DNA of 64,000 bases from an uncultured Coriobacteriaceae bacterium (GCA_902772435.1 CACYAX010000001.1:4987-68986); one strand, 5' to 3'. Counted from the stretch's first letter, positions 1,498 to 51,888 are shown. The notes: a model not told the origin generated them from the letters alone. Made by a program: numbers and translations.

Positions 1498-1615
1498 GCC
1501 GTGGGCGGCCGTCGCCCCGCGGGTGCGCGCCGGACGGCGAACGATGTCTGGGCAATTCGCTGATTGGGGCATTCGCGTGTGCTGCGGCCCGCGTCGTGCT
1601 ACTATGGTCATCCAT

Positions 1616-1690
1616 GCCAGTGTGGCTCAATGGTAGAGCACCGGCCTTGTAATCCGGTGGTTATGGGTTCGATTCCCATCACTGGCTCCA
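1616..1690 (+). tRNA. tRNA-Thr (anticodon TGT), CCA encoded
   Basis: Acceptor stem gccagtg/cactggc, T-arm atggg-ttcgatt-cccat, anticodon loop cTTGTAa. Folded by eye. Confidence 0.8.
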
Positions 1691-1700
1691 TGCAACGCAA

Positions 1701-1733
1701 AGGCCAGGCGGCTCGTCCGTCTGGCCTTCTTCA
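1701..1733 (+). terminator. Hairpin aggccag/ctggcct followed by a tcttc tract, downstream of tRNA-Thr
   Basis: 7-bp stem with a T-rich tail seen directly in the sequence. Confidence 0.35.
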
Positions 1734-1811
1734 TGCCGGGCGCATGCGCCCTCTCAATACGAGACCCGCCCGCCGCCCCGCATTCGCCGTGTCGTTCGTC
1801 ATATGTGGTAA

Positions 1812-1841
1812 TGGACGTGCCGCATACGGGTATCCTATAAT
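1812..1841 (+). promoter_or_regulatory. Candidate sigma-70-type promoter (TGGACG, 18 nt, TATAAT) upstream of the small peptide gene
   Basis: Perfect TATAAT at 1836-1841 with a weak -35. Confidence 0.3.
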
Positions 1842-1916
1842 TCATGTGGGACAAGCAGGCCTTGTTGCCGTACAAGTAGTTGACTCGTGCAGAAGGCCCG
1901 TGAGAAAGGAACACAC

Positions 1917-2120
1917 ATGGAGAACAACGAGTGGCTCGAAAGCCTGAGCGAAGAGGACCGCACTGCTCTTGAGGCCCTCACCACCGACGAAGAGGTCGCC
2001 GCCTATCTTGAGGAGCATTCCATCGAGCTCCCCGACGAGGCCCTCATGGAGGTTGCTGGTGGCGTCAACGTCGGTCGCGAGATCGGCAAGTGGGTTCGTA
2101 AGCTCCTCGGCTTCAAGTAA
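1917..2120 (+). CDS. 67-aa precursor peptide: Nif11-like acidic leader ending in a double-glycine cleavage motif (ELPDEALMEVAGG), then an 18-aa cationic core VNVGREIGKWVRKLLGFK
   Basis: ATG at 1917 preceded by gaaagga. The leader resembles N11P/GG-leader bacteriocin and pheromone precursors. The core has net charge about +4 and no Cys/Ser/Thr. Confidence 0.6.
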   Translation: MENNEWLESLSEEDRTALEALTTDEEVAAYLEEHSIELPDEALMEVAGGVNVGREIGKWVRKLLGFK

Positions 2121-2156
2121 CCAAGTAATCTAGTAGCATAGATACTCGGCATGCAA

Positions 2157-2183
2157 AGCTGCCCCGCGGCGCGGGGCAGCTTC
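2157..2183 (+). promoter_or_regulatory. Perfect 12-bp stem, 3-nt loop hairpin (aagctgccccgc ggc gcggggcagctt) between the peptide gene and the first membrane-protein gene, with no U-tract
   Basis: Read directly from the sequence. Its position is analogous to the partial terminators that follow bacteriocin structural genes. Confidence 0.5.
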
Positions 2184-2222
2184 ATGCCGTTAGATGCGTT
2201 CCTGGATACGAGAGGGGCTCCC

Positions 2223-3413
2223 GTGAAAAAGCCAAGTGAGGTCTGGAAGCAATTTCCCCTTCTGCTGAAGGTGCTCTCCATCATCTTTGCCGTCAACTTC
2301 ATCGTGACGCTGATCGTGCTCATCTTCTCGTCGCGCGACCTCGTCGAATACAGCGCAGCCAACCTCATCGACTGGCTGAACCTCGTGTTCGAGGCCATCG
2401 CCCTCTACATGTTCTGGTACAAGCTGAAGGTGGCCCGTCCCTTCGTGATGGGCTATTCGGCGTTCAACATCGTGGCCGGCACCATCGCCGAGGTCATGGC
2501 GGGCACCTTCGACCCCATCGTGCAGGCGTTCTCCATGGCCTTTGATGTCTTCCTCTTCGTGACGTTCTGGAAGTACCAGCCCTTCGTGGACTACTTCACC
2601 GAGGATCTCTCGTGGGAGGTCGAAGAGGCTGCGAGCGGCGACTACATCTCCAAGCGCTTCACCTGGCCGTGGGTCCGCAACTGCCTCATCTACTTCAGCG
2701 TGTTCTCGTTCGCGGGCCACTGGATGGAGATGGGCTTCTGCATGGCCATCAAGGCGGGCCTGGTCAAGGGCGAGTTCGACCCCTCCAACACCATGCTCTG
2801 GCGCGACTGGTTCTACCCCTTCCCGATGGAGGGCATGGCCGTCGTGCTCATCGCGCTTCTGCTGTACCCGCTGTGGGTGTGGCTCCGCAAGAAGCTGCCG
2901 CTCATTCCGGCGGCGCTCGTGAGCTTCGTGGTCAACGGCATCCTCTGCGTGTCCATCGAGTTCGTCTGCGGCCTCATGTGGAACGCCAACCTGCAGAACT
3001 GGGACTACTCCAACATGCCCTTCAACTTCATGGGCCAGGTCTGCCTGCAGAACGGCCTGGGCTTCGCGTTCGCCGCGAGCGTCATCGCGTGGGTCGTCTA
3101 CCCGCTGCTGGAGCGCCTGCTCAACCGTCTGCCCAAGTCGGTCATGAACGTGGCCTGCATCGTGTTCACGTCGCTCTTCCTCGTGGCGCAGACGCTCTAT
3201 CTCGTCGACACGCCGGTCGACTACCGCACCTCCATCGAGCAGCAGCTCGCCGAGGACGACGCCAACCCGGGCACGCTCACACCCGAGTACCGCAAGGAGC
3301 TCGAGGAGGACCTTGCCTACCTCGACTACCTTGACGAGTACAAGGCGGAGAACGCCGAGCGCATCGCGCGCGAGCGCGCCGAGGCCGCGGCGGCCGAGGG
3401 GAAGGGCGACTAG
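2223..3413 (+). CDS. Polytopic membrane protein with a C-terminal CmpB-like domain ('putative ABC-transporter type IV', DUF1113; Pfam PF06541 from memory) and an acidic coiled C-terminal tail
   Basis: Motifs FSFAGHWMEMG, DPSNTMLWRDWFYPFPMEG and WDYSNMPFNFMGQVCLQNGLGF. GTG at 2223 follows gagagggg. The ATG at 2151 lies inside the hairpin, so it was disfavoured. Confidence 0.65.
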   Translation: MKKPSEVWKQFPLLLKVLSIIFAVNFIVTLIVLIFSSRDLVEYSAANLIDWLNLVFEAIALYMFWYKLKVARPFVMGYSAFNIVAGTIAEVMAGTFDPIVQAFSMAFDVFLFVTFWKYQPFVDYFTEDLSWEVEEAASGDYISKRFTWPWVRNCLIYFSVFSFAGHWMEMGFCMAIKAGLVKGEFDPSNTMLWRDWFYPFPMEGMAVVLIALLLYPLWVWLRKKLPLIPAALVSFVVNGILCVSIEFVCGLMWNANLQNWDYSNMPFNFMGQVCLQNGLGFAFAASVIAWVVYPLLERLLNRLPKSVMNVACIVFTSLFLVAQTLYLVDTPVDYRTSIEQQLAEDDANPGTLTPEYRKELEEDLAYLDYLDEYKAENAERIARERAEAAAAEGKGD

Positions 3414-3437
3414 GCGCTTCACCTGCGTGCACGTCCT

Positions 3438-3470
3438 GCGCCGGGGCCTTCGGGTCCCGGCGCTTTTTTT
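3438..3470 (+). terminator. Rho-independent terminator (gcgccggg..cccggcgc plus T7)
   Basis: GC-rich stem followed by ttttttt. Confidence 0.7.
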
Positions 3471-3605
3471 GCGGGAGCGCCGCTTGAGTGTGCCGTTTCG
3501 TGTGCGGGGTATGGTTCGTGCGCGGGCGAGCGAATGTGCTGGGACAGGGGATGGACAGACTCGTATGCGTAAGGGATACGGTCCATTCCGACGGTTAGGC
3601 ACCCT

Positions 3606-4652
3606 ATGAAAAAATGGCTCACACCAAAGGTCAAACTACGAATATGCGGGGCGTACTTCGGGCTCTACCTGATACTCTCCTTCGCCTACGCGGCACTCTG
3701 CCCGCCGGCAGAATTCACCTACGATCTTTCGCTCTTCCGAGCCGTCCTGATCGCGGCGTGCGCGGCGCATGCGCTGTTCGTGCTGGTGCGGAAACGTATC
3801 GACGCGCGGATCACCTCGCTGGTGACGCTCGTCTTGTGCGTGGGACTCTCAGCCATCGACCTCTTCGGTTTGGGGGCGTTGTCTGACGCTGCGGTGGTCG
3901 TGGGCATGCCGGCGGTGGCGATCGTCACGTTCCTCGAATACGCGGGGGCCATCGTGGTGGCGCTGATCTTAGGCTTTGACAAGGAGACGTACGGGCTGCT
4001 CGACGTGCCCGTGAACCTCGAGCCGGCCTACGACGGCGGCCACAGCTGGGACGAGCCCATGAGCAAACGCGTCCGCACCTGGGAGTTCTGGCGCGACCTG
4101 ATCATGTACTTCATCGTGTTCTCGTTCATCGGGCACTGGGCGGAGATCCTGTTCTGCAGGCTCATCCTCGCGGGCGTCTTCATGGGCGGCTACGACCCCA
4201 CCAACGCGATGCTCTGGGACCAGTGGCTCTTCCCGTTCTCCGCGGAGGGCACGGCGCTGGCGGCCGTGGTGGTGTTTTTGCACCCCATCGCCACGAAGCT
4301 GCAGAATCGCTACGGGCAGCACTCGATTCGCGCCGTGCTGCTGAGCTTCCTTGCCAACTTCGTGGTCTGCACGTCAATCGACTTCGGCACGGGCATGGTG
4401 GCCAACCAGCACTACGAGCTCTGGGACTACCGCGACATGCCGTTCAACTTCATGGGGCAGGTCTGCCTGCAGAACTCGATGGTCTACTCCATCGCGGCGA
4501 CGCTCGTGGTCTGGGGGCTCTATCCGCTGATGGACAAGGGGCTGCGCAAGCTGCCCAAGGACGCGGCTGACGGCCTGTTCTGGGGACTCGTGGGTATCTA
4601 CGGGTTCCTGGCGCTGCTGCACTTCGTGGATCCGTCGATGGCGGTGGCGTAG
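3606..4652 (+). CDS. Paralogous CmpB-like (DUF1113) polytopic membrane protein
   Basis: Shares FSFIGHWAEI, DPTNAMLWDQWLFPFSAEG and WDYRDMPFNFMGQVCLQNSMVY with the 2223-3413 product. The N-terminal TM region is different. Confidence 0.7.
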   Translation: MKKWLTPKVKLRICGAYFGLYLILSFAYAALCPPAEFTYDLSLFRAVLIAACAAHALFVLVRKRIDARITSLVTLVLCVGLSAIDLFGLGALSDAAVVVGMPAVAIVTFLEYAGAIVVALILGFDKETYGLLDVPVNLEPAYDGGHSWDEPMSKRVRTWEFWRDLIMYFIVFSFIGHWAEILFCRLILAGVFMGGYDPTNAMLWDQWLFPFSAEGTALAAVVVFLHPIATKLQNRYGQHSIRAVLLSFLANFVVCTSIDFGTGMVANQHYELWDYRDMPFNFMGQVCLQNSMVYSIAATLVVWGLYPLMDKGLRKLPKDAADGLFWGLVGIYGFLALLHFVDPSMAVA

Positions 4653-4903
4653 CGCGACTGGACGGGGTAACGTCGGGGCGCCCTCGGCTGCATGCGGCAA
4701 GCGGGGGTGCCTCGCGCTGTTTCGGGGTGCCTGGCGCAGCGGTTTTGTGTGCGGGGCCGATGCGAACGGCGGGAGGCCCGCCGAACGCAGCAGTTCCAAC
4801 CCCTCGTCAGCCGCATTTGGCACGGCCGGGCCACGCTCGTGGTGACGCACGCGGCTCCCAAGCGCTACGATGACAAGAGCATCATCCGGCGGAAGGGGAG
4901 ACG

Positions 4904-6733
4904 ATGCACCTCATCGACGCATTCAAGATGTACGGTCGTTCATGGCGGCAGTGGCTCGGCTTCGAGCTCATCTACCGCCTCGTGAGCACGGCGCTCGGCC
5001 TGCCGTTGCTCAAGCTTGCGATCGACACGGCAATGAAGCTGACGGGCTATGCCTACCTCACCTTCGAGAACATAACGGCGTTCTTGCTGACGCCCGTGTG
5101 CATCATCTTCGCCCTGATCGGCTTCCTTGTGCTCGCCTACACCATGGTCATCGAGGTCGCGGGCCTCCACTACATCCTCGACCTCGCCGACCAGGGCATC
5201 CGCCCGCACCTGCGCGACGCCTTCCGCTACGGCTTCATGCGCGCGAACCGTTCCTTCAGGCTGCGCAACATCCTCGCGGTGCCCTACACGCAGATCGTGG
5301 TGCCCTTCCTCGGCCTCGGCGTGACGGCGGGCCTCGTGCAGTCCCTCAACCTCCCCGAGTACATGTACGAGTTCTCCAACATGAACGTCCACGACTTCAT
5401 CCAGTTCACGGTGCTGCCGCTCGTGGGCGCCCTCGCCCTCGTGCCCTTCCTCTTCGCCATCATCTACTTCGTGGCGGACGACATCTCCTTCTTCGAGGCG
5501 GGCCGCAGGAGCTGGAAGGCAAGTTGGAAGCACTACTTCGGCAACCTCGTGGGCTCGGTGTTCGGCGAGCTCGTGGCCTACTTCGTCATCGGCCTCGTGA
5601 TGGTGGTCGCCGCCGTGGTCCTGGCGCGCATCAGCAGCCTGTTCCTGCCGCGCGACCTCTACGAGAACGTCGTCGGGCCGGGCATCTCGGTCTTCGCGGG
5701 CATCTTTGCCAACTTCTTCCTCGTGACGCCGATCTCCTACGCGATCCTGCTCGCGCTGCTGCGCCGTCGCACGGACGCGCCCCAGCCCTCGCGCGTGACG
5801 GAGATGGCGCCCTCGCGCATGCCGGCATGGGCCATGCCCGCGCTCATCGCGGCTACCTGCGCCGTGTCGCTGATCGGTGGGGCGTACTTCATCCAGCTCA
5901 ACTTCCTAGGGACGGGAGCCTCCACGAAGGTGGAGGGCCAGGACCTCGCGCGCCACATCGACGTGACGGCTCATCGTGGCGGCAGCTACGGGGCGCCCGA
6001 GAACACGATGGCCGCCATGGAGCAGGCCAAGATCGACGGTGCCGACATCTGCGAGATTGACGTGCAGATGAGCAAGGACGGCCAGATCTTCGTGAGCCAT
6101 GACACCAACTTCCTGCGCGTGTCGCGCGTGGACAAGAACGCCTGGGAGCTCACCTACGACGAGATCCTCGAGCTTGACGCGCGCGCCCAGTACTGGGTCG
6201 ACCGGGGCTACGAGATGCAGCGCTATCCGCTGCTCGACGAGGTCATCACCTGGGCGGAGGAGTCCGACATGCTCCTCAACATCGAGCTCAAGCCCACGGG
6301 CCATGAGACCGACTTCGAGAAGGCCGTGGCAGACATCGTGAACGCGCACGACTTCGGCAGCCGCTGCATCGTGACCTCGCAGATGTACGACACCGTGGCC
6401 CGCATGAAGGACTACGCGCCCGAGGCCACCTGCACCTACGTGACCAAGCTGGCCTACGGCGACGTGTGCCAGCTCGAGGCGGCGGACGCCTTCTCCATCG
6501 AGGCGCTGAACGCCACGCCCATGTTCGTGTCGTACCTGCACGCCCACAACAAGACGGTGCTCTGCTGGCTGGTCAACAGCGAGACGACCATCCGCAACGT
6601 GGTGGGCAACGGCGTGGACAACGTGATCACCGACGACGTGCCGCTCGCGCGCAGCGTGGTGGACTCGGTGAACGAGCAGACGCCGGCAGAGCGCATGATC
6701 ACCCGCATCGCCTCCATCTTCGGCGTGCAGTGA
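4904..6733 (+). CDS. Membrane-anchored glycerophosphodiester phosphodiesterase: N-terminal multi-TM domain plus a C-terminal GDPD catalytic domain
   Basis: 609 aa. GDPD signature AHRGGSYGAPENTMAAMEQAKIDGADICEIDVQMSKDGQIFVSHD. RBS ggaaggggag. Confidence 0.85.
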   Translation: MHLIDAFKMYGRSWRQWLGFELIYRLVSTALGLPLLKLAIDTAMKLTGYAYLTFENITAFLLTPVCIIFALIGFLVLAYTMVIEVAGLHYILDLADQGIRPHLRDAFRYGFMRANRSFRLRNILAVPYTQIVVPFLGLGVTAGLVQSLNLPEYMYEFSNMNVHDFIQFTVLPLVGALALVPFLFAIIYFVADDISFFEAGRRSWKASWKHYFGNLVGSVFGELVAYFVIGLVMVVAAVVLARISSLFLPRDLYENVVGPGISVFAGIFANFFLVTPISYAILLALLRRRTDAPQPSRVTEMAPSRMPAWAMPALIAATCAVSLIGGAYFIQLNFLGTGASTKVEGQDLARHIDVTAHRGGSYGAPENTMAAMEQAKIDGADICEIDVQMSKDGQIFVSHDTNFLRVSRVDKNAWELTYDEILELDARAQYWVDRGYEMQRYPLLDEVITWAEESDMLLNIELKPTGHETDFEKAVADIVNAHDFGSRCIVTSQMYDTVARMKDYAPEATCTYVTKLAYGDVCQLEAADAFSIEALNATPMFVSYLHAHNKTVLCWLVNSETTIRNVVGNGVDNVITDDVPLARSVVDSVNEQTPAERMITRIASIFGVQ

Positions 6734-7846: not shown

Positions 7847-7928
7847 GCGTTCAAACGGCACCCACTGGGTGCCGTGAACATAAATAGAGGCTAAACGGCC
7901 GTGAAGGTTGTTTCAAAAGGAGGATGGC

Positions 7929-9157
<1,229 letters not shown>

Positions 9158-13272: not shown

Positions 13273-13640
13273 TGTATGGGGAATCGAATCCCGCATAGCG
13301 CGCGTTCAAACAGGCTGGTCTTAGGTGCATGCGGACCAACGCAGGGGTGGGCATGACGATGCGCCAAGAGCACGCGCACCAGCGAGCACGCCGTACCCGA
13401 TGCGGATATGGTGCGAAGCGCGGGCCTCATGGAGGGGTGCCTTTCATTCTGCCTGCATGACCGTGCACTTCGGCTTTACGCTGGCTCAAGGTTTAATGTC
13501 GTACTCAAGCTGCACCTGAGAGTAATCGAATCCTATCTTGCGGGGGTCTTAAAGGTAGTCTGTGATAAGCTGAAAAGTGCTAAAACGAAACAGAATGCTC
13601 GCGAGATTTGTTTGATGAAGCGGGAACACGGAGAATACCC

Positions 13641-16600
13641 ATGATGGCGTCCAAAACGGAGCACAAACGGAGCAATCGCCTAAGGGCATCCGGCTCGGAA
13701 GGAATGCGGCCCATGAATGGAAGACGGAAGACACTGACCATTCTTGTGTCGGTCGCAATGCTGCTGTCCATGCTGCCCACTAACGCGTTGGCGGAGATGG
13801 TCGGCATTGACGGTGGGTCAGCTGAGGTTGTCGAGACTCCAACTAGCGTGATCGACGAGAGTGGGGTTGAGGCGCCAGGCGCGGACGAGGCGCCTGCGGC
13901 AGGCGATACCGATGTCGAGTCCGAAGTGGCCCAAGAAATCGCGGCCAGCGATGGCGAGTCTCTTGTGGCGGAAGCTGCAACCGAGGACGAAGCCGCAGCC
14001 GAAGGGACTGTCGCCGACGAGCCAAGAGACGACGCCACGTCAAACGACTATGCCGAAGCCGAGCCTGTCGCCGGGTCCGAGGCGTATCTGTCTGGGACGC
14101 TGTCTGTCGAGGGGCTCGACTATGCCGTCTCCGTAGACCCGACCGAAGACGCCAAGCTTCCCGCCAATGCCCAGCTTGTGGTCAGCGAAGTCAGTGGTGC
14201 CGCGTATGACGAATACGTCGCTCAGGCCGAATCCGCGCTCGGCAAGGGCGCCCTCTCCATCGGCCGCATCTTCGACATCGGCTTCGAGGTTGAAGGAGAG
14301 TCCGTCGAACCCGCCTCTGAGGTCTCCGTACACATACGCCTCGCCAACGCCGAGGAGGAGGCCGCTAAGGTCCTCCACATCACTGATGAGGGCGTTGAGG
14401 TCATCGTGCCCGATTCCGCTCCAGAGGGTTCCGAGAGCGTTGACTTCACCGTCGAGCAGCTGTCGCCGTTCCTGATGCAGAAGAGGAACGCGAAGGGGGG
14501 CGAGCAGGGCATCATCACCGATTTCAATACCGAAGTCATCTACGGCGGTTCTTGGACCGACGGCAAGTACGTCTGGAATGCCGCCTCGTCCGCCTCGGGC
14601 CACCACTTCAACTTCCGCATCAGCTTCGGCGTCGACAAACCTGCCGGCTCTGAGGCAGCCGACATCGTCTATCCGGCCGAGAGCATCAAGATCACCGTCC
14701 CTGCTCAGATCCTGCACGACCGCAATGGCGCGTTTGCTGACACCATCGACATGTCCGTGCCCCTCAAGGAAGACCTCGAGCAGGCCATCGCTGACGGTGA
14801 GGAACTCGATGACGACATGAGCTTCGCCTACTACGTGGAGCTTGATGACGAGGGCAATCCCACGGGCAACCTCGTGCTCTACAACTTCCGCGAGGTGGAG
14901 CCGGGCTTTGACGGCTACATCGAGCTCGGCTACGTCACGTCCGAGAAGACCTTTGAGTATGAGGACATGTGCGAGTCAGACCCGTTCTGGGCAACCATCG
15001 AGGTCGTGGACCCCACGAGCGAGACGGGCGAGAAGGAGGTCCATACCACCAAGCTCCTCGAAGAGGGCGAGGAGGAAGACCCTGACGTCGACTACATCGA
15101 CGACCAGGACTACACCGTGTGGATCAACACCCAGGCGAGCATGCTCTCCACCGAGAAGCGCATCCCTACCAAGTACGACAGCTGGCAGAGCAACTGGGGG
15201 ACAGCTCCCGATGATGCGGCCGACTACAACTACCTCATCTATGAGGTCCGTAGCCGCATAAACGACTGCTCGCAGAAGTACACCTTCACGCTTGACGACG
15301 AGTACACCAAGCTCATCTCAGGCAACAACAGCGGTGACGTCCAAGCTGACTCCAGCACCGTCAAGATCATGGGCTACATATTCAGTGGCAGCTCTACGGC
15401 GCAGCAGCAGAACTTCGTCACCGACCAGACCATCCGCGACATCCGCTACGACTACGTGATCGTGGGATTCCAGAACAGCTACTGGAACAGCTACACGCAC
15501 TGGGACGTGGTGAACAAGATCACTGCGACGGTCACGCCCGATGACGGCATCGACGAGCCTACCTCGGGCACGTCGACGCGCCGCTTCAACTGGAACAAGC
15601 CCATCTTTGATGGCGGCGGCGGAGGCTTTAACTCCCGCATCACGGCCGACGGTTACTATCGCAACCGTGCGGACCAGGACCTGTGGCCGCGTGAGTACCT
15701 GACGAGCCTCGGCATGGTTGCGGGCTACTACACGCGCTTCGACCTCGCCGACCTGCAAAGTGGCAGAGTCGAGTATCTTGACAACATCGATTACGCGCAC
15801 TGGGGCGAGGGTTATCCCATCTCCTGGACGCGCGACTCCTCCATTGGCGGAGAGCTTTGGGAGCAGTACTTCCAGAACCCTGTCAAATACGAGGTCTACC
15901 TCGACAACTTCTCTATCTTCAACGGCGACCAGAACGTGGGCACTGCCGAGAAGACCCAGCTCCAGCCGGGTGACTACCAGATCGATACGCTTGCATTCTC
16001 CGTCTCCTGCTATGACCGCGCGTATAACGAGAGCACTGCCGCCTTCGACAAGAAGACCGCTACGACCTACCTCGAAGACGAGGTTCTTACGTTCTACGGC
16101 AAGTTTGGCGAAAGCGACGAGTGGACGGCTTTCGCAACACGCGATGCCGCGACGGGCACGGTCACCGTTCTCGATTCTTCGCTTGCCACTTTCTCGGGCA
16201 ACAAGTTCACCTTTGCCGAAGGCGCTGCCTGCACGGGCTACAAGGTCGAGACGACCAACAAACACTATTACTGGCGTGTCAACCTCGTTCCCAACCTGCG
16301 CCTCATCGGCTCTGACAACGTGAAAGACTTCATCAACGGGACCGATGAGGACGGAAACCCCATCGAGTGCATCGGCATCTACGCCAAGGGCCGCGAGAAC
16401 ATCTACAGCCACCTGTCCGCGTTCGATGCCAAGGTCGCGGCCCTCATGAAAGCTGACAGCAGCCTCACCCAGGCCGATGCTGAGGCACAGGCTGAGGAGC
16501 TCGGCCTCTCCAAGGAGGGCTTCACCAACCTCGTGTGGAACGCGAATCCTGCCGATACCGACTACCTGCGCGTGGTCCAGCGTGAGGTGAAACTGAACAA

Positions 16601-19600
16601 GGACGTCACCGCGACGGCCAACAACGCCACCAAGCGCCAGTACACCCTTACCTGGCAGGTCGACTTCGAGGAAACCTCCACGGTAGGCGATGGCACCGAG
16701 CATGAGCCCGTCGAGCAGTCCAGTGGCGTGTTCTACGACCTGCTGCCCCAGGGCGCGACGCTCAACGAGGACACCGTCATGGTGGTGACCGAGGACGGCG
16801 CCCTGCGCTCCAATGCTTTCACCATCGAGCAGCACGACAATTACAAGGGCACGGGCCGCACGCTGCTCGTGGTCCGCGTGAAGGAGTCTGCCGACTTCTA
16901 CCAGCTTTTCTTCGAGACGGTCCACTCCTATGCCTCCATCAAGGACTACGGTTCCGAGGTCTATAACCCCATTGCCTATCAGACCGGCAACCTCGACATC
17001 TCCGATGGCGTTACGGACAGCGACCCCAACAAGGAGACCGTGCAGAGCACCGATCTCGTTCCCGACCCGCTCGACGATGCCGGGCTCATGACGGACATCG
17101 TCAAGGAGATCACGGGTGAGGATGACGACTCGGGTCGCACCTTCGTGTACAACGAGCGTCTCTATGACATCGTGACCATCACCGCCGCCGCGTCGGGCCT
17201 TTCCAAGAAGATCAAGGCCCCCAGCACGAGCGACTATGTCAATGAGGCCCTCGTCCAGAACGAGGGAAGCTACAGCTACCGTCTGCGCTACCAGAACAGT
17301 TACGCGGGCGAAGCGAAGAGCCTCGTGTTCTACGACAACCTTGAGTCCTACGAGGGCAAGCGCGCGAGCGATTGGCAGGGCACGCTCCAGGCAATCGACT
17401 TCTCCGCCCTCGACCTGTCGCTCGTGGCTCCCGAAGTCTACGTGAGCGAGAACGCAGTCGACACCTCCAACGCCGACAACCGCGACCTCACCAACGAAGA
17501 CGTCTGGACGCACGTCGACGACTACACGAACTACGACTACTCATCTGTCAGGGCAGTTGCCATCGACCTCAGCAAGAACCCCGAGGGCGAGGACTACATC
17601 ATTAACAAGGGCGCCGCCGTCTCTGTCTACCTGTACATGAAGGCGCCGGCAGGCGCGACCCGCTCGGATGGCAAGGCTGACTACCCTGAGGCTTACAACG
17701 AGGTGGCCGACAGCCATACCATCATCAAAGAGACCTCTGCGGACCAGGACGTCTACAACCAGCAGGGCCCGACCATTGCCAAGCTCGCCATCTCCAAGGA
17801 CATCAACCTCCTCAAGGTCGGCGAGGACGGCGTGGGCATCCGTAACATCTCGTTCCGCCTGGTCGGCACCTCCGACTACGGCACCGAGTACGACAAGATC
17901 GAGTACTCCGACAAGAACGGTTACGTGACCTTCAGGAAGATCGAGAAGGGCAGCTACACGTTCTCCGAGTATGAGTGCACCCCCGACTGGCTCGAGGATC
18001 ACACCGTGCACACCGTGTGGATTAGTTCTCAGGGCCACGTGTTCATCGACATGCCCGAGAGCCTGAAGACCGAGCTTGCCGCCGACGCCACGGTGGATGA
18101 GACCATCAGTTACTATGCCGAGCGCGCCGCGTATGACAAGACGAGCGTCGAGTTCGAGATCGTGAACAAGCCGCGCGTGCATGCCGACCTCACCTTCCTC
18201 AAGAGCCGTGCGCTCACCGAGGACGACAACTCCGTCAAGGGCATTCCCGAGACCACGTTCAAGCTGAGCGGAACCTCCGATTACGGCAACGAGATCACCA
18301 AGATCGTGGTTTCCAACGAGCTCGGCATCGTGTCGATCTATGACATCGAGAAGGGCACCTACACCCTCAAGGAGATTCAGGCCAATCCCGACTACGTGCT
18401 CGTGGAGACCGAGTACCGCGTGAAGATCGACGACACGGGCAACGCGACCCTCTATGCCCCGCGCGTTGACGAAGAGGGCAACCCCGTCGTTGACGTCGAG
18501 GGCAACACGGCCTACGACGAGGTCGTGGTCGACGATACCCTCTCGCAGTATCGCCTGCTCTTCAACCCCGAGCGCTACCACGACCTGATGCTGCGCAAGG
18601 TGGACGCCGACAATCCCAGCCGCTGGCTGCAGGGAGCCACCGTGCGCCTGACGGGCGCGAAGCTCGCTGACTACAACTACACCGACGATGAGGGCAACAC
18701 GGTCACCGCCACTGAGGACAACGGCAGCTACTACATCGAGACCGTGAGTGACGCCAACGGCAAGATCAGCTTCCCGCACCTCGAGGCGGGCAGCTACGTG
18801 CTTAAGGAGACCGAGGCGCCTTCGGGCGTTGACGGCGACGGTCACACCGGCACGGGCGGCACGCTCAACTACATCGCTGACAGCAACGAATACGTGGTCG
18901 TCGTCGCCGACGACGGCACGGTGACCATCGATGGCCTTGAGAAGAACAGCTTCGATGAGTACATGCTCAAGAATGCCCGCGCGCTTGACGGCGAGATCAT
19001 CGTCTACAAGCAGTGGGAAGATGACGACAATGCGGATGGCAGCCGCCCTGATGCCGCGACCATCAAGATGACCGCCGATCCCGAGAGCCTCGTCATCAAG
19101 GGTCTCACGGTCACCAAGATCTGGCAGGGCGATACCTCAGAGCTGCGTCCCGATGACCTGAACATCCAGATTTACAAGGCGCCAGGCCAGATTGACGGCT
19201 ACACCATGGTCGAGTACATCGAGGCCAACGGCGGGGCTTGGCTTGACACGGGCTTCAATCCCGATAGCAACACCACGGTTGACGCCACGATCATGATGAC
19301 GGGCAACAACAATCACCAAACGCTCTTTGGTGCGAGGAACGCGGTTTCGGGAACGCCGGCTTTCTCATTGTGTGAGGGCCACGATAAGAACACCAACCTG
19401 CTCTATTACTATGGCGCCGCGGGCCAGTGGTATGAGATGGGCAAAAAGTCCCTCACGCGAGACGTCAGCTATGACGTGCACCTAGGACCGGATGCCGTGA
19501 CGGTTTCCAACGACTTCTTCTCCTCGACCACACCGAGCGCGGAGTTCTCGGTTGACGTCTCGCTTTACATCTTTGCATACCACCATGACTCAGACGTGGT

Positions 19601-22600
19601 CTACGGCGACACGCAGGGCCGCATCTACTCCTTCCGCATCTACGACGGCAGCACGCTCGTGCGCGACTACATTCCCGTCTACGACGCGACCAACGGCGTC
19701 TACGGCCTGTACGATCTCGTGAACGGCAACTTCATCTCTTCGATCGGCACCGCGCAGTTCACGGGCCCCGAGGTGAGCACCGAGGCTGAGCTCTACGAAG
19801 AGAGCACGGGCAACGACAACGTGACCATCATCAAGGTGGGTAACGTCTGGACCTATACGTTCACTGACATCACTATCGACGGCAAGCAGAACTTCTTTGC
19901 CTGCGAGGCTGCGGCTCCTGAGGGCTATACCGGCTCAAACGTGGGCGCCAGCAACCTCGCGGCGGTCCAGTCCGGCAAGGCGACGATCACCAACGCCTAT
20001 GAGTCCGCGACCGACTATGAATACACGGGAGCCGTCCAGACCTTCACGGCCCCCGTCACGGGCGACTACAAGCTCGAGGCTTGGGGTGCCCAGGGCGGTA
20101 ACTCTGCGGGCAACAAAAGCGTGCAAAAGCCCGTGTATTACGGATTGGGCGGTAGAGGCGCCTACACTTCGGGCACCATCAGGCTCACTGCAGGCCAGAC
20201 CATCTATGTCTACGTTGGTGGACGCAACAATGGCCCCTATAGGTATGACGCCAACGGCAGGGTCGCAAGCGGCGATGACGCACCCGCGGCCTTCAATGGC
20301 GGAGGCGGCGGAAACCATGACCACAGCGGTCGTGAATCAGGCTCACCGGAGAGTGGTGGCTCTGGTGGCGGTGCGACCGACTTCCGCCTGACGGTGTCCA
20401 CTGCCGATGATGGCTGGAGCGGTTTTGACTCACTGAAGACACGCATCATGGTCGCCGCTGGTGGCGGCGGTTCCGCCGACCAGCAGACCGGCGGCTACGG
20501 TGGTGCCCTGACGGGCGGTAATGCACTCGGCAATGCCTATGGCGCCACGCAGAATACGGGCTTTGGTTTCGGCGTGGGCCAAACATCGACATATAAATGG
20601 TCCAACAAGGACGGCGGAGGTGCTGGCGGCGGATACTACGGCGGATTCGCGCAGACAAACGCTAGCCATGGCCGCGGAAACTACTCCAACGCGGGCGCCG
20701 GCGGCTCGTCCTTCGTGTCCGGCTATGAGGGCTGCGACGCCATCGCCGAGAGCTCTACGGCTGCCAGCATCGTTCATACGGGATCTTCTGAGCATTACTC
20801 CGGCATCGTGTTCAGCGACCCGGTCATGCTCGCGGGCAACCAGGCGATCACCGAGCCGGATGGAAGCAGCTCCACTGGTCACGAGGGCGATGGCCACGCG
20901 CGCGTCACGCTCGTGGTGGACACCAACTCATCAACCGACGGCTCTTCGAGCTCCGATGACGCGAGCTCCGACACGATGCTCCCCGTCGCGGAGTACATGA
21001 CCGAGACCGATGGCTGGGAGTACGTTGAGGGCAACCCCAACATGCAGAAGTACGTCTTCAAGGTCTTCAACGACGAGGGCACGTACTACCTCGAGGAGCT
21101 TACTGACGCTGAGCACCTGCCCGAGGGCTACACCTGCGACATGGACTACCAGGTGCTCGACGGAACCAAGCAGAAGTCGGTCATCTTCACCAACCGCAAG
21201 GCGGGCGCCTACGGTGACCTCGAGATCACCAAGACCGTCGAGGGCCTCGATGACTCGAACCAGAAGTTTGAGATCACCGTCACCCTCTCTGACGGCGACG
21301 GCACCAAGATTGACGAGGCCGGCAGCACCATCATCGACGGCATCGCCTTTACCAACGGCGCGGCGACCTTCTCGCTGGCCGACGGCGAGAAGGCGACCAT
21401 CCATAACATCCCGCTGAACGTGGCGTACACGGTCTCCGAGGCAGCGAACCCCAACTTCAACAACGGCGCAGCGCTAGCCGACCAGACTGGCACCATTCAG
21501 CCAAACACCACGACGACCGATGACGAGGGCAACACCGTGACGGAGCCCGGCAACAAGGTTGCGCTCACCAACGTCTATACGTATAAGGCAGAGACCGTGC
21601 CGTTGACCATCTCCAAGGTCGTGACGGGCTCCAAGCTCGGTAGCGAGGACGTGGAGTACCCGTTCTTCGTATCCTTCACCAACCTTGCCAAGAACTTCGA
21701 ATACGTGCTCCTGAGCACTGACGGTGCCACCGAGTATGCCCGCTTCACCTCCGATGACAGCGGCAACGCCACGGTGTCCTTCAAGCTCAAGGACGGCGAG
21801 AGCGCCGTGCTCGCGGACTCCTACGCGATTCCGGTCGATGCTACCTACCAGGTAACCGAGAACGAGGGAGACTACGTCGCCTCCTTCTCCATCAAGGACG
21901 CGGGCGCGGAGTCCCAGGGCAGCATCCTGCAGTCCGCGAAGGAGAACACCGCGTCCCAGACCTCGCTGACCACGGAAAACGAGGTCGCGGAGTCGGACGA
22001 GGACGTGACCATTACCTACACGAACAAGCTCAGCTACACGCATGACCTCACGCTCGCCAAGGTTGTTGACGCACAGGGCACCACGGTGCCGGCGGGCCAG
22101 ACCTTCGAGTTCACGGTCCGCTTCGAGGGGCTGGAATCCGAGCAGGCCATCGACACCACGATCGGCCGATGGGTCGCCGACGACGAGGGCGTGGTCGAGA
22201 AGACCTTCAACCTCAAGGACGCCGGCACGGTGACCTTCAAGAAGCTGCCGGTGGGCACCAAGTACACCATCACGGAGGCCAAGGCGGGCGGTTACATTGC
22301 CAGCTATGAGATCACGGCGGAAGACGAGGATGCCCTCGTGGCCGTCAAGGCCGAGGACGCAAACGAGGCTGCCGGCAAGGCGCTTGCCACCGCTCAGGAG
22401 ACCGTGAACAAGAACGAGGTCGCCACGGTGACCTTCACCAACACGCGTGCGATGGGCGAGCTTACCCTCGAGAAGCAGGTTGAGGGCAAGACGACCAGCA
22501 AGAAGTTTGAGTTTGAGCTCTACATCCCCGACCTGGTGCGCCAGAAGACGTCGTATGAGGCCTATCTGAACACGGACGGCACGCCCGTAAGCCAAGGCAC

Positions 22601-22973
22601 GGGCGAGATCGAGTTTGACGCAAACGGCAAGGCGACCGTGCAGCTGGCCGATAACGAGCGCTACGTTATTGCCGTGCCCGAAGGCGCGTCGTACAAGATC
22701 ACCGAGACCATGGACGCGCAGTACACCGCGAGCTACACCGTCGCGGGAGGCAAGAAGGTCTCCAGCCCGGTGGTCTCTGGCCGCACCATCAGCAGCGAAC
22801 CCGCTGAGAACGTGGTCATCTTCACCAACACGTTCGCTACCTACGAACTGCCCTCTTCGGGCGGTCCCGGATCGTATCCGTTCATCATCTGTGGCGTGGC
22901 CATTCTCGCCACGGCCCTTCTTCTGCTTGAGAAGAACAGGCGTGAGGAAGGGGGAAACAAGGCGAGGTCCTAG
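13641..22973 (+). CDS. Giant (about 3110 aa) sortase-anchored surface adhesin / probable pilus tip protein. The start is uncertain: 13608 TTG, 13641 ATG or 13704 ATG.
   Basis: Signal peptide (RRKTLTILVSVAMLLSMLPTNALA). Acidic N-terminal region. Three Cna-B/prealbumin-like repeats (about 17790-18830). Glycine-rich domain (about 20017-20920). Four C-terminal pilin-like Ig repeats (about 21200-22830). LPSSG plus TM plus a basic tail at the C-terminus. Confidence 0.8.
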   Translation: MMASKTEHKRSNRLRASGSEGMRPMNGRRKTLTILVSVAMLLSMLPTNALAEMVGIDGGSAEVVETPTSVIDESGVEAPGADEAPAAGDTDVESEVAQEIAASDGESLVAEAATEDEAAAEGTVADEPRDDATSNDYAEAEPVAGSEAYLSGTLSVEGLDYAVSVDPTEDAKLPANAQLVVSEVSGAAYDEYVAQAESALGKGALSIGRIFDIGFEVEGESVEPASEVSVHIRLANAEEEAAKVLHITDEGVEVIVPDSAPEGSESVDFTVEQLSPFLMQKRNAKGGEQGIITDFNTEVIYGGSWTDGKYVWNAASSASGHHFNFRISFGVDKPAGSEAADIVYPAESIKITVPAQILHDRNGAFADTIDMSVPLKEDLEQAIADGEELDDDMSFAYYVELDDEGNPTGNLVLYNFREVEPGFDGYIELGYVTSEKTFEYEDMCESDPFWATIEVVDPTSETGEKEVHTTKLLEEGEEEDPDVDYIDDQDYTVWINTQASMLSTEKRIPTKYDSWQSNWGTAPDDAADYNYLIYEVRSRINDCSQKYTFTLDDEYTKLISGNNSGDVQADSSTVKIMGYIFSGSSTAQQQNFVTDQTIRDIRYDYVIVGFQNSYWNSYTHWDVVNKITATVTPDDGIDEPTSGTSTRRFNWNKPIFDGGGGGFNSRITADGYYRNRADQDLWPREYLTSLGMVAGYYTRFDLADLQSGRVEYLDNIDYAHWGEGYPISWTRDSSIGGELWEQYFQNPVKYEVYLDNFSIFNGDQNVGTAEKTQLQPGDYQIDTLAFSVSCYDRAYNESTAAFDKKTATTYLEDEVLTFYGKFGESDEWTAFATRDAATGTVTVLDSSLATFSGNKFTFAEGAACTGYKVETTNKHYYWRVNLVPNLRLIGSDNVKDFINGTDEDGNPIECIGIYAKGRENIYSHLSAFDAKVAALMKADSSLTQADAEAQAEELGLSKEGFTNLVWNANPADTDYLRVVQREVKLNKDVTATANNATKRQYTLTWQVDFEETSTVGDGTEHEPVEQSSGVFYDLLPQGATLNEDTVMVVTEDGALRSNAFTIEQHDNYKGTGRTLLVVRVKESADFYQLFFETVHSYASIKDYGSEVYNPIAYQTGNLDISDGVTDSDPNKETVQSTDLVPDPLDDAGLMTDIVKEITGEDDDSGRTFVYNERLYDIVTITAAASGLSKKIKAPSTSDYVNEALVQNEGSYSYRLRYQNSYAGEAKSLVFYDNLESYEGKRASDWQGTLQAIDFSALDLSLVAPEVYVSENAVDTSNADNRDLTNEDVWTHVDDYTNYDYSSVRAVAIDLSKNPEGEDYIINKGAAVSVYLYMKAPAGATRSDGKADYPEAYNEVADSHTIIKETSADQDVYNQQGPTIAKLAISKDINLLKVGEDGVGIRNISFRLVGTSDYGTEYDKIEYSDKNGYVTFRKIEKGSYTFSEYECTPDWLEDHTVHTVWISSQGHVFIDMPESLKTELAADATVDETISYYAERAAYDKTSVEFEIVNKPRVHADLTFLKSRALTEDDNSVKGIPETTFKLSGTSDYGNEITKIVVSNELGIVSIYDIEKGTYTLKEIQANPDYVLVETEYRVKIDDTGNATLYAPRVDEEGNPVVDVEGNTAYDEVVVDDTLSQYRLLFNPERYHDLMLRKVDADNPSRWLQGATVRLTGAKLADYNYTDDEGNTVTATEDNGSYYIETVSDANGKISFPHLEAGSYVLKETEAPSGVDGDGHTGTGGTLNYIADSNEYVVVVADDGTVTIDGLEKNSFDEYMLKNARALDGEIIVYKQWEDDDNADGSRPDAATIKMTADPESLVIKGLTVTKIWQGDTSELRPDDLNIQIYKAPGQIDGYTMVEYIEANGGAWLDTGFNPDSNTTVDATIMMTGNNNHQTLFGARNAVSGTPAFSLCEGHDKNTNLLYYYGAAGQWYEMGKKSLTRDVSYDVHLGPDAVTVSNDFFSSTTPSAEFSVDVSLYIFAYHHDSDVVYGDTQGRIYSFRIYDGSTLVRDYIPVYDATNGVYGLYDLVNGNFISSIGTAQFTGPEVSTEAELYEESTGNDNVTIIKVGNVWTYTFTDITIDGKQNFFACEAAAPEGYTGSNVGASNLAAVQSGKATITNAYESATDYEYTGAVQTFTAPVTGDYKLEAWGAQGGNSAGNKSVQKPVYYGLGGRGAYTSGTIRLTAGQTIYVYVGGRNNGPYRYDANGRVASGDDAPAAFNGGGGGNHDHSGRESGSPESGGSGGGATDFRLTVSTADDGWSGFDSLKTRIMVAAGGGGSADQQTGGYGGALTGGNALGNAYGATQNTGFGFGVGQTSTYKWSNKDGGGAGGGYYGGFAQTNASHGRGNYSNAGAGGSSFVSGYEGCDAIAESSTAASIVHTGSSEHYSGIVFSDPVMLAGNQAITEPDGSSSTGHEGDGHARVTLVVDTNSSTDGSSSSDDASSDTMLPVAEYMTETDGWEYVEGNPNMQKYVFKVFNDEGTYYLEELTDAEHLPEGYTCDMDYQVLDGTKQKSVIFTNRKAGAYGDLEITKTVEGLDDSNQKFEITVTLSDGDGTKIDEAGSTIIDGIAFTNGAATFSLADGEKATIHNIPLNVAYTVSEAANPNFNNGAALADQTGTIQPNTTTTDDEGNTVTEPGNKVALTNVYTYKAETVPLTISKVVTGSKLGSEDVEYPFFVSFTNLAKNFEYVLLSTDGATEYARFTSDDSGNATVSFKLKDGESAVLADSYAIPVDATYQVTENEGDYVASFSIKDAGAESQGSILQSAKENTASQTSLTTENEVAESDEDVTITYTNKLSYTHDLTLAKVVDAQGTTVPAGQTFEFTVRFEGLESEQAIDTTIGRWVADDEGVVEKTFNLKDAGTVTFKKLPVGTKYTITEAKAGGYIASYEITAEDEDALVAVKAEDANEAAGKALATAQETVNKNEVATVTFTNTRAMGELTLEKQVEGKTTSKKFEFELYIPDLVRQKTSYEAYLNTDGTPVSQGTGEIEFDANGKATVQLADNERYVIAVPEGASYKITETMDAQYTASYTVAGGKKVSSPVVSGRTISSEPAENVVIFTNTFATYELPSSGGPGSYPFIICGVAILATALLLLEKNRREEGGNKARS

Positions 22974-23113
22974 CGGGAAGGCGGCAGTGCCGCCGGCTCG
23001 GCCTGCACCGAAGCAGGCGCGGAGCCCAAAGCCCGGGCCTCCCGGGAGAATCGTGAGTAGGCAAACAGGAATAGAACGTTGCGAACAAGGCAAGCAATGT
23101 GAAAGGAGCAGGC

Positions 23114-24787: not shown

Positions 24788-24874
24788 GTGCTGCTCGCGT
24801 GCGTGAGCACGCTGTGTGTGAGTTTGCGGGGCCGGCGCACGTTGCCGGCCCCCGCGAGAAGCAATGGGGAACGC

Positions 24875-25867
24875 ATGAATGGTCGCCGGAAGGCAAACAT
24901 CATCCTCGTCCTCGTGTTCTTTGTGGGACTGAGCGTTGCGCTGTATCCGACGATCAGCACGGCTTGGAACGAGTATCGCGCCCGCCAGCTGGTGACCAGC
25001 TACGACCAGACGGTCAGCAGGGCCACGGCGGAGGACGAAGACTACTTTGCCCAAGAGATCGGCAAGGCACAGCGCTACAACGCGACGCTTGCCAACATGC
25101 CGGTTCCCGATGCCTTCTCGGTGCGAGAGGGCGTGAAGGACGTCTCGTATGAGGCGCTGCTGAACGTCAACGGTGATGGGATGATCGGCTACGTCGAGAT
25201 ACCGTGTCTCGACGAGAAGCTGCCCATCTATCACTACACCACCGAGTCCGTGCTGCTCAAGGGCGCCGGACACCTGCTGGGGAGCGCGCTCCCTGTAGGC
25301 GGTGAGGGAACGCATTGCGTGGTCTCGGCCCACCGCGGGCTGCCCCACGCAAAGATGTTCAAAGAGCTGGACCTCATGGAGGTGGGCGACGAGTTCTACT
25401 TCCATGTGCTGGGCAAGGTCTTCGCCTACGAGGTCGACCAGATCCTCGTGGTGGAACCGAGCGAGGTCGAGTCGCTCGGCGTGACGGAGGGCAAGGACTA
25501 CGCGACCCTCATCACGTGCACGCCCTACGCAGTGAACACGCGCCGCTTGCTGGTGCGGGGCCATCGGGTGGAGTTCGACGAAGCGGCCTACGAAAAGGCC
25601 GTGGGAGAGACGGCTGCCAAGAGCAACGTACCCTACCTGCTCATGCAGCTACTCTGCGTAGCCTTGGGTCTCGTGATCGCGTTCGTAATCGTGAGGCTTC
25701 TGGACAGGCGCAGGCAGGCGAAGAGCGCGCCTGCGGTGGCTGGGCGTCACAGCAGGATGACAGGGCCTGATGGTGGGCCGCGGCCTCATGAGAAAGAGGG
25801 GCACGAGGAAACAGGGGAAGTGCGCGGACGCCACGTCCGCCGCGGCCCGGATGGGGGAGCGCAGTGA
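24875..25867 (+). CDS. Class C (pilus-assembly) sortase
   Basis: N-terminal TM, catalytic region with CVVSAHRG and TLITCTPYAVNTRRLLVRGHRV (TLxTC), and a C-terminal TM anchor. Confidence 0.85.
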   Translation: MNGRRKANIILVLVFFVGLSVALYPTISTAWNEYRARQLVTSYDQTVSRATAEDEDYFAQEIGKAQRYNATLANMPVPDAFSVREGVKDVSYEALLNVNGDGMIGYVEIPCLDEKLPIYHYTTESVLLKGAGHLLGSALPVGGEGTHCVVSAHRGLPHAKMFKELDLMEVGDEFYFHVLGKVFAYEVDQILVVEPSEVESLGVTEGKDYATLITCTPYAVNTRRLLVRGHRVEFDEAAYEKAVGETAAKSNVPYLLMQLLCVALGLVIAFVIVRLLDRRRQAKSAPAVAGRHSRMTGPDGGPRPHEKEGHEETGEVRGRHVRRGPDGGAQ

Positions 25868-26844: not shown

Positions 26845-26974
26845 GCGTGAGCGTCGTAGGAAGAGATCACAGGGCGCGCATCACGTGTCAGTGGGTTTTG
26901 GGCACGGGGTGCGCTGGTTCGGTGACAAGGGTTTCAAGGTGCAGGGTTTCGGCATCGAGTGAAGAGGGTCAGTT

Positions 26975-51665: not shown

Positions 51666-51888
51666 CGCCCCTTAGGTGAAAGAGCCGTTGTTTTCTGATG
51701 CCGCTCACCGCGGGCCAGCGGTTGGTCACCTTGCTCTCAAGACCTCAATCAAATTACAAATCCGCAGGTAGAAGGCAACCTATACCAAACCTAGACTTGT
51801 GGCAAACCAACCTTTTGCGCATGGTGGAAACTGTATTGCTATCTCTAATGCCCAGGGATTCGCGCCATGGGTGAAGGGTGGTGCGCTC

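Follow-up and report, generated by a model that had tools for sequence, protein, structure and literature searches.

A double-glycine-leader peptide gene paired with a clade of PF06541/DUF1113 membrane proteins in rumen Coriobacteriia: a candidate bacteriocin module

In Gram-positive bacteria, unmodified class II (IIc/IId-type) bacteriocins with a double-glycine (GG) leader are encoded with a downstream immunity gene, as exemplified by lactococcin A and LciA. Kjos et al. (2010, J Bacteriol) reportedly found that the Abi/CPBP proteins PlnI, PlnLR and SkkI, members of a broad membrane-enzyme-like family, also serve as immunity proteins. The Nif11-derived leader peptides (N11P) were described together with the NHLM three-gene export cluster (TIGR03794/03796/03797), beside which they occur in Eggerthella lenta, a member of the Coriobacteriia (Haft, Basu and Mitchell 2010; PMC2887384). 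The polytopic immunity protein of the SdpC/SdpI system of Bacillus subtilis also transduces a signal (PMC2910880). The present analysis concerns a 64,000-nucleotide stretch of DNA (the window; CACYAX010000001.1:4987-68986) from an uncultured, high-GC rumen member of the Coriobacteriia, whose closest named relatives are metagenome-assembled genomes (MAGs) of Atopobiaceae. The window contains a 67-codon gene for a GG-leader peptide followed by two genes, DUF_A and DUF_B, for polytopic membrane proteins of the family PF06541 (DUF1113). Taken by itself, the peptide adds one more routine member to the known GG-leader/NHLM systems. What is new is that such a peptide and a specific PF06541 clade are joined in a three-gene unit, which is invariant and mobile. 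The leader and exporter classes are already known, but this strict pairing appears to be undescribed, and a search of the literature found no paper that ties DUF1113 to bacteriocins or GG-leader peptides.

The association between the peptide and DUF1113 genes holds in both directions. In the forward test, 80 genome loci (designated by L numbers) were fetched with a DUF_A profile, and a hidden Markov model (HMM) of three peptides was run over every stop-to-stop open reading frame (ORF). A peptide gene lies directly upstream of DUF_A in 6/6 loci whose DUF_A is 57–61% identical to that of the window and in 0/74 other Coriobacteriia DUF1113 loci (DUF_A identity ≤52%). A broader family HMM left this outcome unchanged. 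In the reverse test, metagenomes were scanned with an alignment of type-A peptides, which are the homologues encoded upstream of DUF_A (69 aa in L011, 66 aa in L013, and others). All seven type-A-like peptides are followed by DUF_A, and among them the cores INPFLLLGQALKRMLGNR and INPFALLGQALKRRLSRK are new variants. Matches of the Firmicutes type have STAS neighbours and no PF06541 gene. DUF_A always begins ∼30–135 nt after the type-A peptide gene, and the peptide-linked proteins, without any other member, form one clade in a neighbour-joining tree of 78 DUF_A sequences (bootstrap value 95/100). An earlier reading of the DNA made from its letters alone (the sequence-only reading) had proposed a functional link between the peptide and the DUF1113 pair. 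This link is supported, in that no peptide-clade DUF1113 gene without a peptide was found among the relatives examined.

Flanking genes differ among the window, L011, the L013 group, L020, L021 and L022 (at least five contexts), and the three-gene unit has therefore moved intact. The module-bearing MAGs RUG12252, RUG12495 and RUG14646 hold further long-form DUF_A paralogues (L019/L083, L020/L082 and L021/L096), and in two of these MAGs the paralogue is convergent to SpoU–YacP. The presence of other DUF1113 paralogues in module genomes fits an extra, dedicated copy. When plasmids were searched with DUF_A by tblastn, the single match, in Collinsella, was weak and had no bacteriocin context. Taken together, DUF_A and DUF_B are very likely functional partners of the peptide.

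The 67-aa ORF is a true gene. The features listed by the sequence-only reading are all present, with coordinates within ∼1 nt (Table 1), and the small ORF that it had pointed out is conserved in relatives and under purifying selection. The dN/dS ratio is 0.1–0.28 in leader and core alike (five orthologues). A Shine–Dalgarno-like sequence, GAGAAAGGAA, precedes the start codon at 1902–1911. A promoter candidate, the sole match to the sigma-70 consensus in 1500–5000, lies ∼75 nt 5′ of the start; it is a pattern match, from which promoter function may be supposed. The exact peptide was found in ∼120 blocks, mostly from cattle-rumen metagenome assemblies, and its context is always identical. All close relatives have a homologous small ORF with a good Shine–Dalgarno sequence upstream of DUF_A. 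When 5.8 billion proteins were searched with the single sequence, only the peptide's own 90% cluster was matched. Its relatives were found via the neighbours of DUF_A first and then by profile.

Table 1. Features of the module in the window and type-B proteins at related loci
Feature	Position	Strand	Basis or remark
tRNA-Thr(TGT)	1616..1690	+	ARAGORN; Rfam tRNA 72 bits; landmark directly upstream of the module
Sigma-70-like promoter candidate, TGGACG-18-TATAAT	1812..1841	+	consensus scan, 10/12 matching
Peptide ORF, 67 aa	1917 (ATG)..2120 (TAA)	+	sequence exactly as given by the sequence-only reading
49-aa leader of the precursor; net charge −15; C-terminal ELPDEALMEVAGG	1917..2063	+	translation; N11P motif match
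Predicted mature core VNVGREIGKWVRKLLGFK (18 aa) and stop codon	2064..2120	+	translation; AlphaFold2 model
GC-rich stem-loop between peptide gene and DUF_A	2147..2189	+	candidate leaky terminator or attenuator
DUF_A, PF06541/DUF1113 polytopic membrane protein, 396 aa from GTG	2223..3413	+	Pfam E = 1.6e-20
Intrinsic terminator, 11-bp stem (10 GC pairs) and T7	3438..3470	+	between DUF_A and DUF_B
DUF_B, second PF06541/DUF1113 membrane protein, 348 aa	3606..4652	+	Pfam E = 3.8e-18
Type-B proteins	L013 8442-8729; L019 10259-10684; L020 10868-11155; L018 5030-5233		

The leader had been assigned to the Nif11 type. In a direct scan, the window peptide has no match at E ≤ 1 in Pfam or NCBIfam, and its homologues in L011 and L013 likewise lack a match to TIGR03798 or PF07862. 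The assignment therefore fails as a direct HMM match, but profile-level homology reinstates it. When 11 family members were combined in a profile, 361 proteins were recovered from the 5.8 billion sequences, and PF07862-annotated peptides were matched at E values of 4e-11 to 6e-10. Among 46 sampled family members, 16 match TIGR03798 (best E value 3.2e-6) and 12 match PF07862 (best 5.5e-7). An exhaustive profile search gives a superfamily of 4,421 cluster representatives at E ≤ 1e-3. When ComC-family leaders were considered, PF03047 was touched by 1/46 superfamily members (E = 0.006). At the end of the window leader, which is of the ELPDEALxEVAGG type, 10/13 residues are identical to the published N11P cleavage consensus, ELSDEELEAVAGG. 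By the combination of profile homology, TIGR03798/PF07862 matches and the N11P motif, the peptide is, at the level of sequence, a short and divergent member of the Nif11-like GG-leader superfamily, though not by curated cut-offs.

As judged from its residues, the leader retains the full recognition pattern of peptidase-containing ABC transporters (PCATs), with hydrophobic residues at −4 (V46), −7 (L43) and −12 (L38) and the GG pair (G48–G49). The best match of the peptide in the Protein Data Bank is CtA, the solved substrate of PCAT1 from Clostridium thermocellum (6v9z, 7s5j and 7t55). The match is weak (E = 0.07) and aligned at the cleavage motif, where the leader pattern G-x-E-L-T/P-D-E-x-L-x-x-x-x-G-G is common to both, and the structures provide a model for C39 docking. 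The cargo of CtA is unrelated, and PCAT1 is a single transporter in contrast to the two ABC (ATP-binding cassette) proteins of NHLM. In the AlphaFold2 model of the 67-mer, the leader forms four short helices, the chain breaks at GG, and residues 52–64 of the core form a helix (pLDDT ∼83). A Foldseek search with the peptide model gave a best E value of only 2.6.

The predicted mature core carries a net charge of +4 and contains no Cys, Ser or Thr. Its hydrophobic moment of 0.54 is attained by only 4% of shuffled sequences. No enzyme for peptides that are made by the ribosome and modified afterwards (RiPPs), such as LanM, a cyclodehydratase or a radical SAM enzyme, is encoded beside the module, either in the window or in annotated relatives. 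These observations agree with the unmodified cationic core that had been predicted. The pattern x-N-x5-6-[IF]..-[KR]-x2-L is kept in the cores of relatives, which have charges of +3 to +5 and are less clearly amphipathic. The window locus encodes a single precursor and no paralogous precursor set.

Two variants of the peptide occur at related loci. A 95-aa type-B GG-leader protein is encoded 3′ of the DUF1113 pair in several relatives (Table 1) and is absent from the window. Its core opens with the type-A x-N-F-x..L helix and continues into a Zn-ribbon-like tail (Cys-x-Cys...Cys-x-x-Cys). In L022, the variant at 3884-4126 keeps the core, VNVGRSFGVWLKHML, but ends its non-acidic leader in ...AELAAG instead of GG and extends the core by an acidic tail. 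Of the membrane pair, only DUF_A follows this gene, and DUF_B was not detected there.

Outside the Atopobiaceae set, the proteins retrieved by the profile make up a large family, which is chiefly from Firmicutes of the gut and rumen and in which a leader of the consensus ...SLTDEQKEKAKACKTxEELxxLAxxEGIELPDEALDAVAGG is followed by hypervariable, often Cys-rich cores. As a separate observation, up to ∼20 tandem precursor genes of the same superfamily are found in the Firmicutes metagenome loci L098 (whole locus) and L097 (7000-10900). The two loci also contain genes for a radical SAM enzyme, a sigma factor and a STAS protein, with PCAT and ABC2 genes in L097, and no PF06541 gene.

The C39-exporter association postulated by the sequence-only reading is observed in relatives, where the same peptide lies beside TIGR03796 and TIGR03797 genes that score above the curated cut-offs. 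At L011/L012, genes for a STAS protein, a short HlyD-like protein, TIGR03796 and TIGR03797 adjoin the peptide gene in divergent orientation. The TIGR03796 peptidase-ABC transporter of L011 scores 948 bits (cut-off 853), matches PF03412 at E = 6e-34 and has Gln14, Cys20, His and Asp of the C39 site. The second ABC transporter, TIGR03797, scores 723 bits (cut-off 709). The HlyD-like protein of L011 has 179 residues and matches only the N-terminus of the 421-position NHLM HlyD-like model. The fullest cluster, L020, consists of pepA, DUF_A, DUF_B, a 168-aa gene, pepB and genes for a STAS-kinase fusion, a sigma-70-family factor, a short HlyD-like protein and PCAT, with the exporter set ∼4 kb downstream of the module. 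These transport genes correspond to the trio that Haft et al. (2010) associated with NHLP and Nif11 precursors. Most module-bearing loci have no exporter within 6–8 kb.

The absence of a C39 exporter, a modification enzyme and a two-component system, which the earlier reading had noted, holds for the window. Neither tblastn with related-locus proteins nor a Pfam scan of the large ORFs finds a C39/ABC exporter in the 64 kb. By tblastn, relatives of the STAS, sigma-factor and PP2C proteins of related loci are also absent from the window, and the Pfam scan of its large ORFs finds no two-component system or RiPP enzyme. The exporter is therefore encoded elsewhere in the genome or absent. On the evidence of its sequence and its relatives, the peptide is probably an exported GG-leader precursor, and it would be cleaved and exported in this organism as well.

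Compared with the described N11P systems, the module is similar in its acidic helical leader with the terminal pattern E-L-x-D-E-x-L-x-x-V-A-G-G and in the TIGR03796, TIGR03797 and HlyD-like genes beside the peptide in L011 and L020. However, the window leader spans 49 residues instead of ∼69 and falls below both curated HMMs. Moreover, the window has a single precursor, no LanM, cyclodehydratase or radical SAM enzyme, and a core devoid of Cys, Ser and Thr, and the HlyD-like protein of relatives is shortened. A PF06541 pair is not a feature of described N11P clusters.

The two membrane proteins were confirmed as PF06541 paralogues that have a common C-terminal domain and divergent N-terminal transmembrane regions. 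DUF_A and DUF_B score 74.3 and 66.5 bits, respectively, against a gathering cut-off of 25.9. Their 42% identity is limited to ∼190 C-terminal residues, and the N-terminal transmembrane regions are unrelated. Full-length DUF_A homologues are found across the Coriobacteriia, and the DUF_A–DUF_B pairing is kept in relatives. The AlphaFold2 model of DUF_A (pLDDT 78, pTM 0.71) contains approximately nine transmembrane helices and a long charged C-terminal helix. A Foldseek search with this model against the Protein Data Bank gave no usable match (best E value 0.42, TM-scores <0.2), and we know of no solved PF06541 structure. The motifs GHWxE, N-T-x-LWRDW-x-YP and W-x-Y...N..G..CL-N are invariant in 19 diverse homologues. 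DUF_B keeps most of the conserved motifs, but LWDQW replaces LWRDW. When the positive-inside rule is applied to the modelled helices, the conserved motifs are predicted to face outward. The name 'ABC transporter permease' (NCBI) finds no support, as there is no ATPase gene at the locus and no ABC fold similarity. The PF06541 designation 'ABC transporter type IV' is likewise unsupported here because no partner ABC ATPase for DUF_A/DUF_B is encoded at the locus. In the literature on bacterial DUF1113/PF06541/CmpB, the sole find was a table entry marked 'not tested'.

In distant Coriobacteriia, DUF_A carries a charged helical cytoplasmic N-terminal extension of 100–200 residues, which is absent from the peptide-linked clade. 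The extensions were considered as fused leaders and rejected, since by inspection they are a different, conserved charged helical region; a 'DVAGG' string in the N-terminus of the L015 protein looks coincidental. The distant DUF_A genes are commonly preceded by a STAS gene and located near genes for a polytopic PP2C (∼15/80 loci), a sigma factor and an NHLM exporter, with the sigma-70-family factor just upstream of the HlyD-short/PCAT/ABC2 genes. STAS–DUF_A–DUF_B operons with PP2C, a sigma-70-family factor and NHLM genes were observed in L048, L050, L051, L056, L061, L066 and L086, and L055, L069 and L074–L079 are also counted among the distant STAS–DUF_A–DUF_B loci. A regular expression and the broad family HMM found no GG-leader ORF within ±8 kb of the former seven loci, and the sole match in the search of distant loci was a weak one in L089.

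The hairpin without a U-tract that had been noticed between the peptide gene and DUF_A is present and larger than first described. An inner stem of 12 bp (2156–2167 with 2171–2182) encloses a 3-nt loop and is extended by a 7-bp outer stem (2147–2153 with 2183–2189). The free energy is −36.1 kcal/mol (z = −4.65 relative to shuffled sequences), and no T-run follows. A hairpin is found at the same position in all relatives, with unrelated sequences in the window, L011 and the L013 group, and three base pairs show compensatory changes within the L013 group. An Rfam scan of 1–10 kb finds tRNAs only and nothing at the hairpin. From its sequence and position, the hairpin may act by attenuation. DUF_A likely starts at GTG 2223, to judge from the Shine–Dalgarno sequence GAGAGGGG 5 nt upstream. 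The start called by gene finders, ATG 2151 (420 aa), was rejected because it is buried in the hairpin stem and has no Shine–Dalgarno sequence; ATG 2184 is also inside the stem. DUF_A and DUF_B are separated in the window by a 192-nt spacer (3414–3605) that holds the terminator, whose T-run reads TTTTTCGT in L001, a metagenome contig that is 99.5% identical. The corresponding genes of relatives lie end to end or overlap (L013 7221/7223, L015 7407/7407 and L020 9146/9149).

The explanation that best accommodates these results, and one that we hold as plausible but tentative, is an unmodified cationic helical bacteriocin with an exporter encoded elsewhere and an immunity pair expressed by read-through of a leaky hairpin. 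The 67-aa gene would encode the precursor of a small class-II-bacteriocin-type peptide, whose acidic four-helix leader would be a short, divergent Nif11-like GG leader. An NHLP/Nif11 (NHLM)-type peptidase-ABC exporter, encoded in this organism outside the 64-kb window, would recognise the leader, cut after Gly48–Gly49 and export the 18-mer. A promoter near 1812–1841 would drive strong expression of the peptide, and the hairpin would stop most transcripts and let a fraction read through into DUF_A. Since a strong terminator stands before DUF_B, this gene would be transcribed separately. DUF_A and DUF_B would be dedicated partners that most likely protect the producer. Immunity is the most economical partner role in view of the gene order in the operon, the presumed leakiness of the hairpin, the additional paralogue and the Abi/CPBP precedent, in which a widespread family with catalytic-looking motifs was recruited for immunity. 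The antimicrobial activity and the immunity role, like the choice of a bacteriocin over a pheromone and the role of the DUF1113 pair as a whole, are points that we infer. Class II systems resemble the module in having a small, cationic, amphipathic, unmodified core after a GG leader and in the order of a structural gene, a stem-loop and polytopic membrane genes. They differ in that the window leader is Nif11-like and ∼49 residues long rather than a 15–30-residue LSxxELxxIxGG type, that the candidate immunity proteins are a pair of ∼350–400-residue PF06541 proteins rather than a small dedicated protein, and that the window shows no histidine kinase/response regulator control.

Several observations weigh against the bacteriocin-and-immunity reading. 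The window peptide has no direct match in the curated databases, and with no exporter in the window the module could be an orphan cassette. Amphipathicity is clear for the window core alone, as the cores of relatives are not above shuffled controls, and the core of the L013 subgroup is strongly conserved and not diversifying. Purifying selection on the core is expected for the ligand of a cognate receptor, and the 18-mer might be a pheromone that DUF_A/DUF_B sense and relay through STAS/PP2C partner switching to an alternative sigma factor controlling the exporter and peptide genes. This is unlikely. Most Coriobacteriia DUF1113 pairs lack a peptide and sit with STAS and PP2C regulators. In the wider class, DUF_A often directly follows a STAS gene near PP2C and sigma-70 genes; a STAS gene adjoins the peptide in L011, a STAS-kinase fusion and a sigma factor adjoin the module in L020, and the polar PF06541 motifs would lie in outward-facing loops. 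However, homologues of all three regulators are missing from the window, the peptide-less DUF1113/STAS loci show that these regulators do not need a peptide, and the peptide-linked clade shows no sign of a signalling output domain and lacks the long cytoplasmic extension of the STAS-linked forms. The window peptide also differs from ComC/BlpC pheromones in its neighbours (rRNA methylase, YacP, tRNA, GDPD and NUDIX genes) and in the absence of a histidine kinase/response regulator. In a combined form, which we consider quite unlikely, the DUF1113 pair would be membrane target, immunity protein and sensor at once, coupling the peptide to a STAS/PP2C cascade and a sigma factor that drives the NHLM exporter. 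SdpC/SdpI offers an analogy only, as a secreted peptide toxin paired with a multi-pass protein that could protect and signal, and has no sequence or family relationship to the module. It is relevant because DUF1113 is tied to STAS, PP2C and sigma-factor genes in relatives.

Also against the bacteriocin-and-immunity reading, type-B proteins share the first ∼15 core residues (x-N-x..-L) yet add the Zn-ribbon-like tail, and the L022 variant keeps the core despite the loss of GG and of leader acidity. The 67-aa product could accordingly stay inside the cell as a cytoplasmic or membrane-peripheral subunit of a DUF1113 complex, with its C-terminal helix docked on DUF_A and GG as a linker. The scarcity of exporters near module loci and the long helical extension of distant DUF_A proteins, missing from the peptide-linked clade, fit such a subunit, but the proposal is also quite unlikely: the leader keeps the PCAT pattern and by inspection bears no similarity to the extensions, a cognate exporter adjoins the peptide in L011 and L020, and the rest of the superfamily consists of typical RiPP or bacteriocin precursors, which are encoded in multiple copies and have hypervariable cores. 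PF06541 is ancient and broad, has ether-lipid-linked eukaryotic members and looks more like an enzyme or transporter family than a bacteriocin-specific immunity family. In 19 diverse homologues, invariant His, Glu, Asp, Asn, Cys and Arg residues occur both in the loops and in the transmembrane segments. The human protein TMEM229B shares this Pfam domain; it is tied to plasmalogen turnover by genome-wide association and has been proposed to be lysoplasmalogenase-like (PMC12393746). Lipid-related genes are found directly 3′ of the module in the window (membrane GDPD) and beside the pair in L015 (GT2 and LPG_synthase_TM). DUF_A and DUF_B as membrane enzymes or transport components that process, modify or help export the peptide, or that remodel lipids with protection as a by-product, are nevertheless very unlikely, given a window core without obviously modifiable residues, no fold match to a solved enzyme or transporter, no ABC ATPase partner despite the 'ABC permease' name, and lipid-gene neighbours that are not conserved across module contexts. 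Least probable, and hardly to be expected, is an adjacency without functional meaning, in which a housekeeping DUF1113 pair received a peptide gene on its upstream side in a single insertion and the genes were simply inherited together. The association did arise once, in a single clade, and DUF1113 pairs work without peptides in most Coriobacteriia. Nevertheless, the three-gene unit is intact across at least five unrelated contexts, the intergenic hairpin is maintained with compensatory changes, the window module lies in a low-GC islet after a tRNA gene, and further DUF1113 paralogues persist in module genomes.

The large family PF06541 reaches as far as human TMEM229A/B, and a peptide partner is a direct experimental handle on it. 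The pairing gives PF06541/DUF1113 a first testable role, which is most likely self-protection against the peptide. If the pair is an immunity determinant, it would add a new immunity family to bacteriocin genome mining and flag narrow-spectrum peptides in the abundant rumen Atopobiaceae. The finding would be more significant if the pair is a receptor or enzyme. If the pair is target, immunity protein and sensor in one, the module would represent an undescribed peptide-sensing circuit and provide the first molecular function for a family conserved from bacteria to humans.

In the window, the gene order is rRNA methylase (SpoU), YacP, tRNA-Thr, the module (peptide, DUF_A and DUF_B), membrane GDPD, NUDIX, tRNAs, tuf, rpmG, secE and nusG. 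The GC content is 70–75% in SpoU/YacP (1–1400) and 56–60% in 1601–2600, where the peptide gene and the 5′ half of DUF_A lie. In the composition profile, the module has a GC content of 56–64%, compared with 70–75% in the genes 5′ of the tRNA. The fall in GC content after tRNA-Thr therefore suggests that the module is an acquired islet. A search for att-like direct repeats around it found none. At L082 (9420-10839) and L083 (9320-10738), SpoU–YacP is convergent to a long-form DUF_A paralogue without a peptide, and the MAGs of these loci bear the peptide module elsewhere (L020 and L019, respectively). The window module fills the equivalent SpoU–YacP neighbourhood in the opposite orientation and with a different paralogue.

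Two further observations concern other parts of the window. The EF-Tu gene, tuf (7908-9157), is split into two frames by a 23-bp direct duplication (CGGCCGCGGCACCGTCGC...) at 8600-8640. The duplication is absent from L001, which has a single 401-aa tuf gene, and probably reflects an artefact of assembly or a frameshift peculiar to the strain. A pilus/adhesin cluster occupies 13608-28099 and 51799-60297. Besides an LPXTG pilin, an FctA-like pilin and a sortase, it contains a 3,121-aa ORF in which SpaA, DUF7601 and glycine-rich domains were recognised. There is also a second giant ORF, of 2,832 aa.

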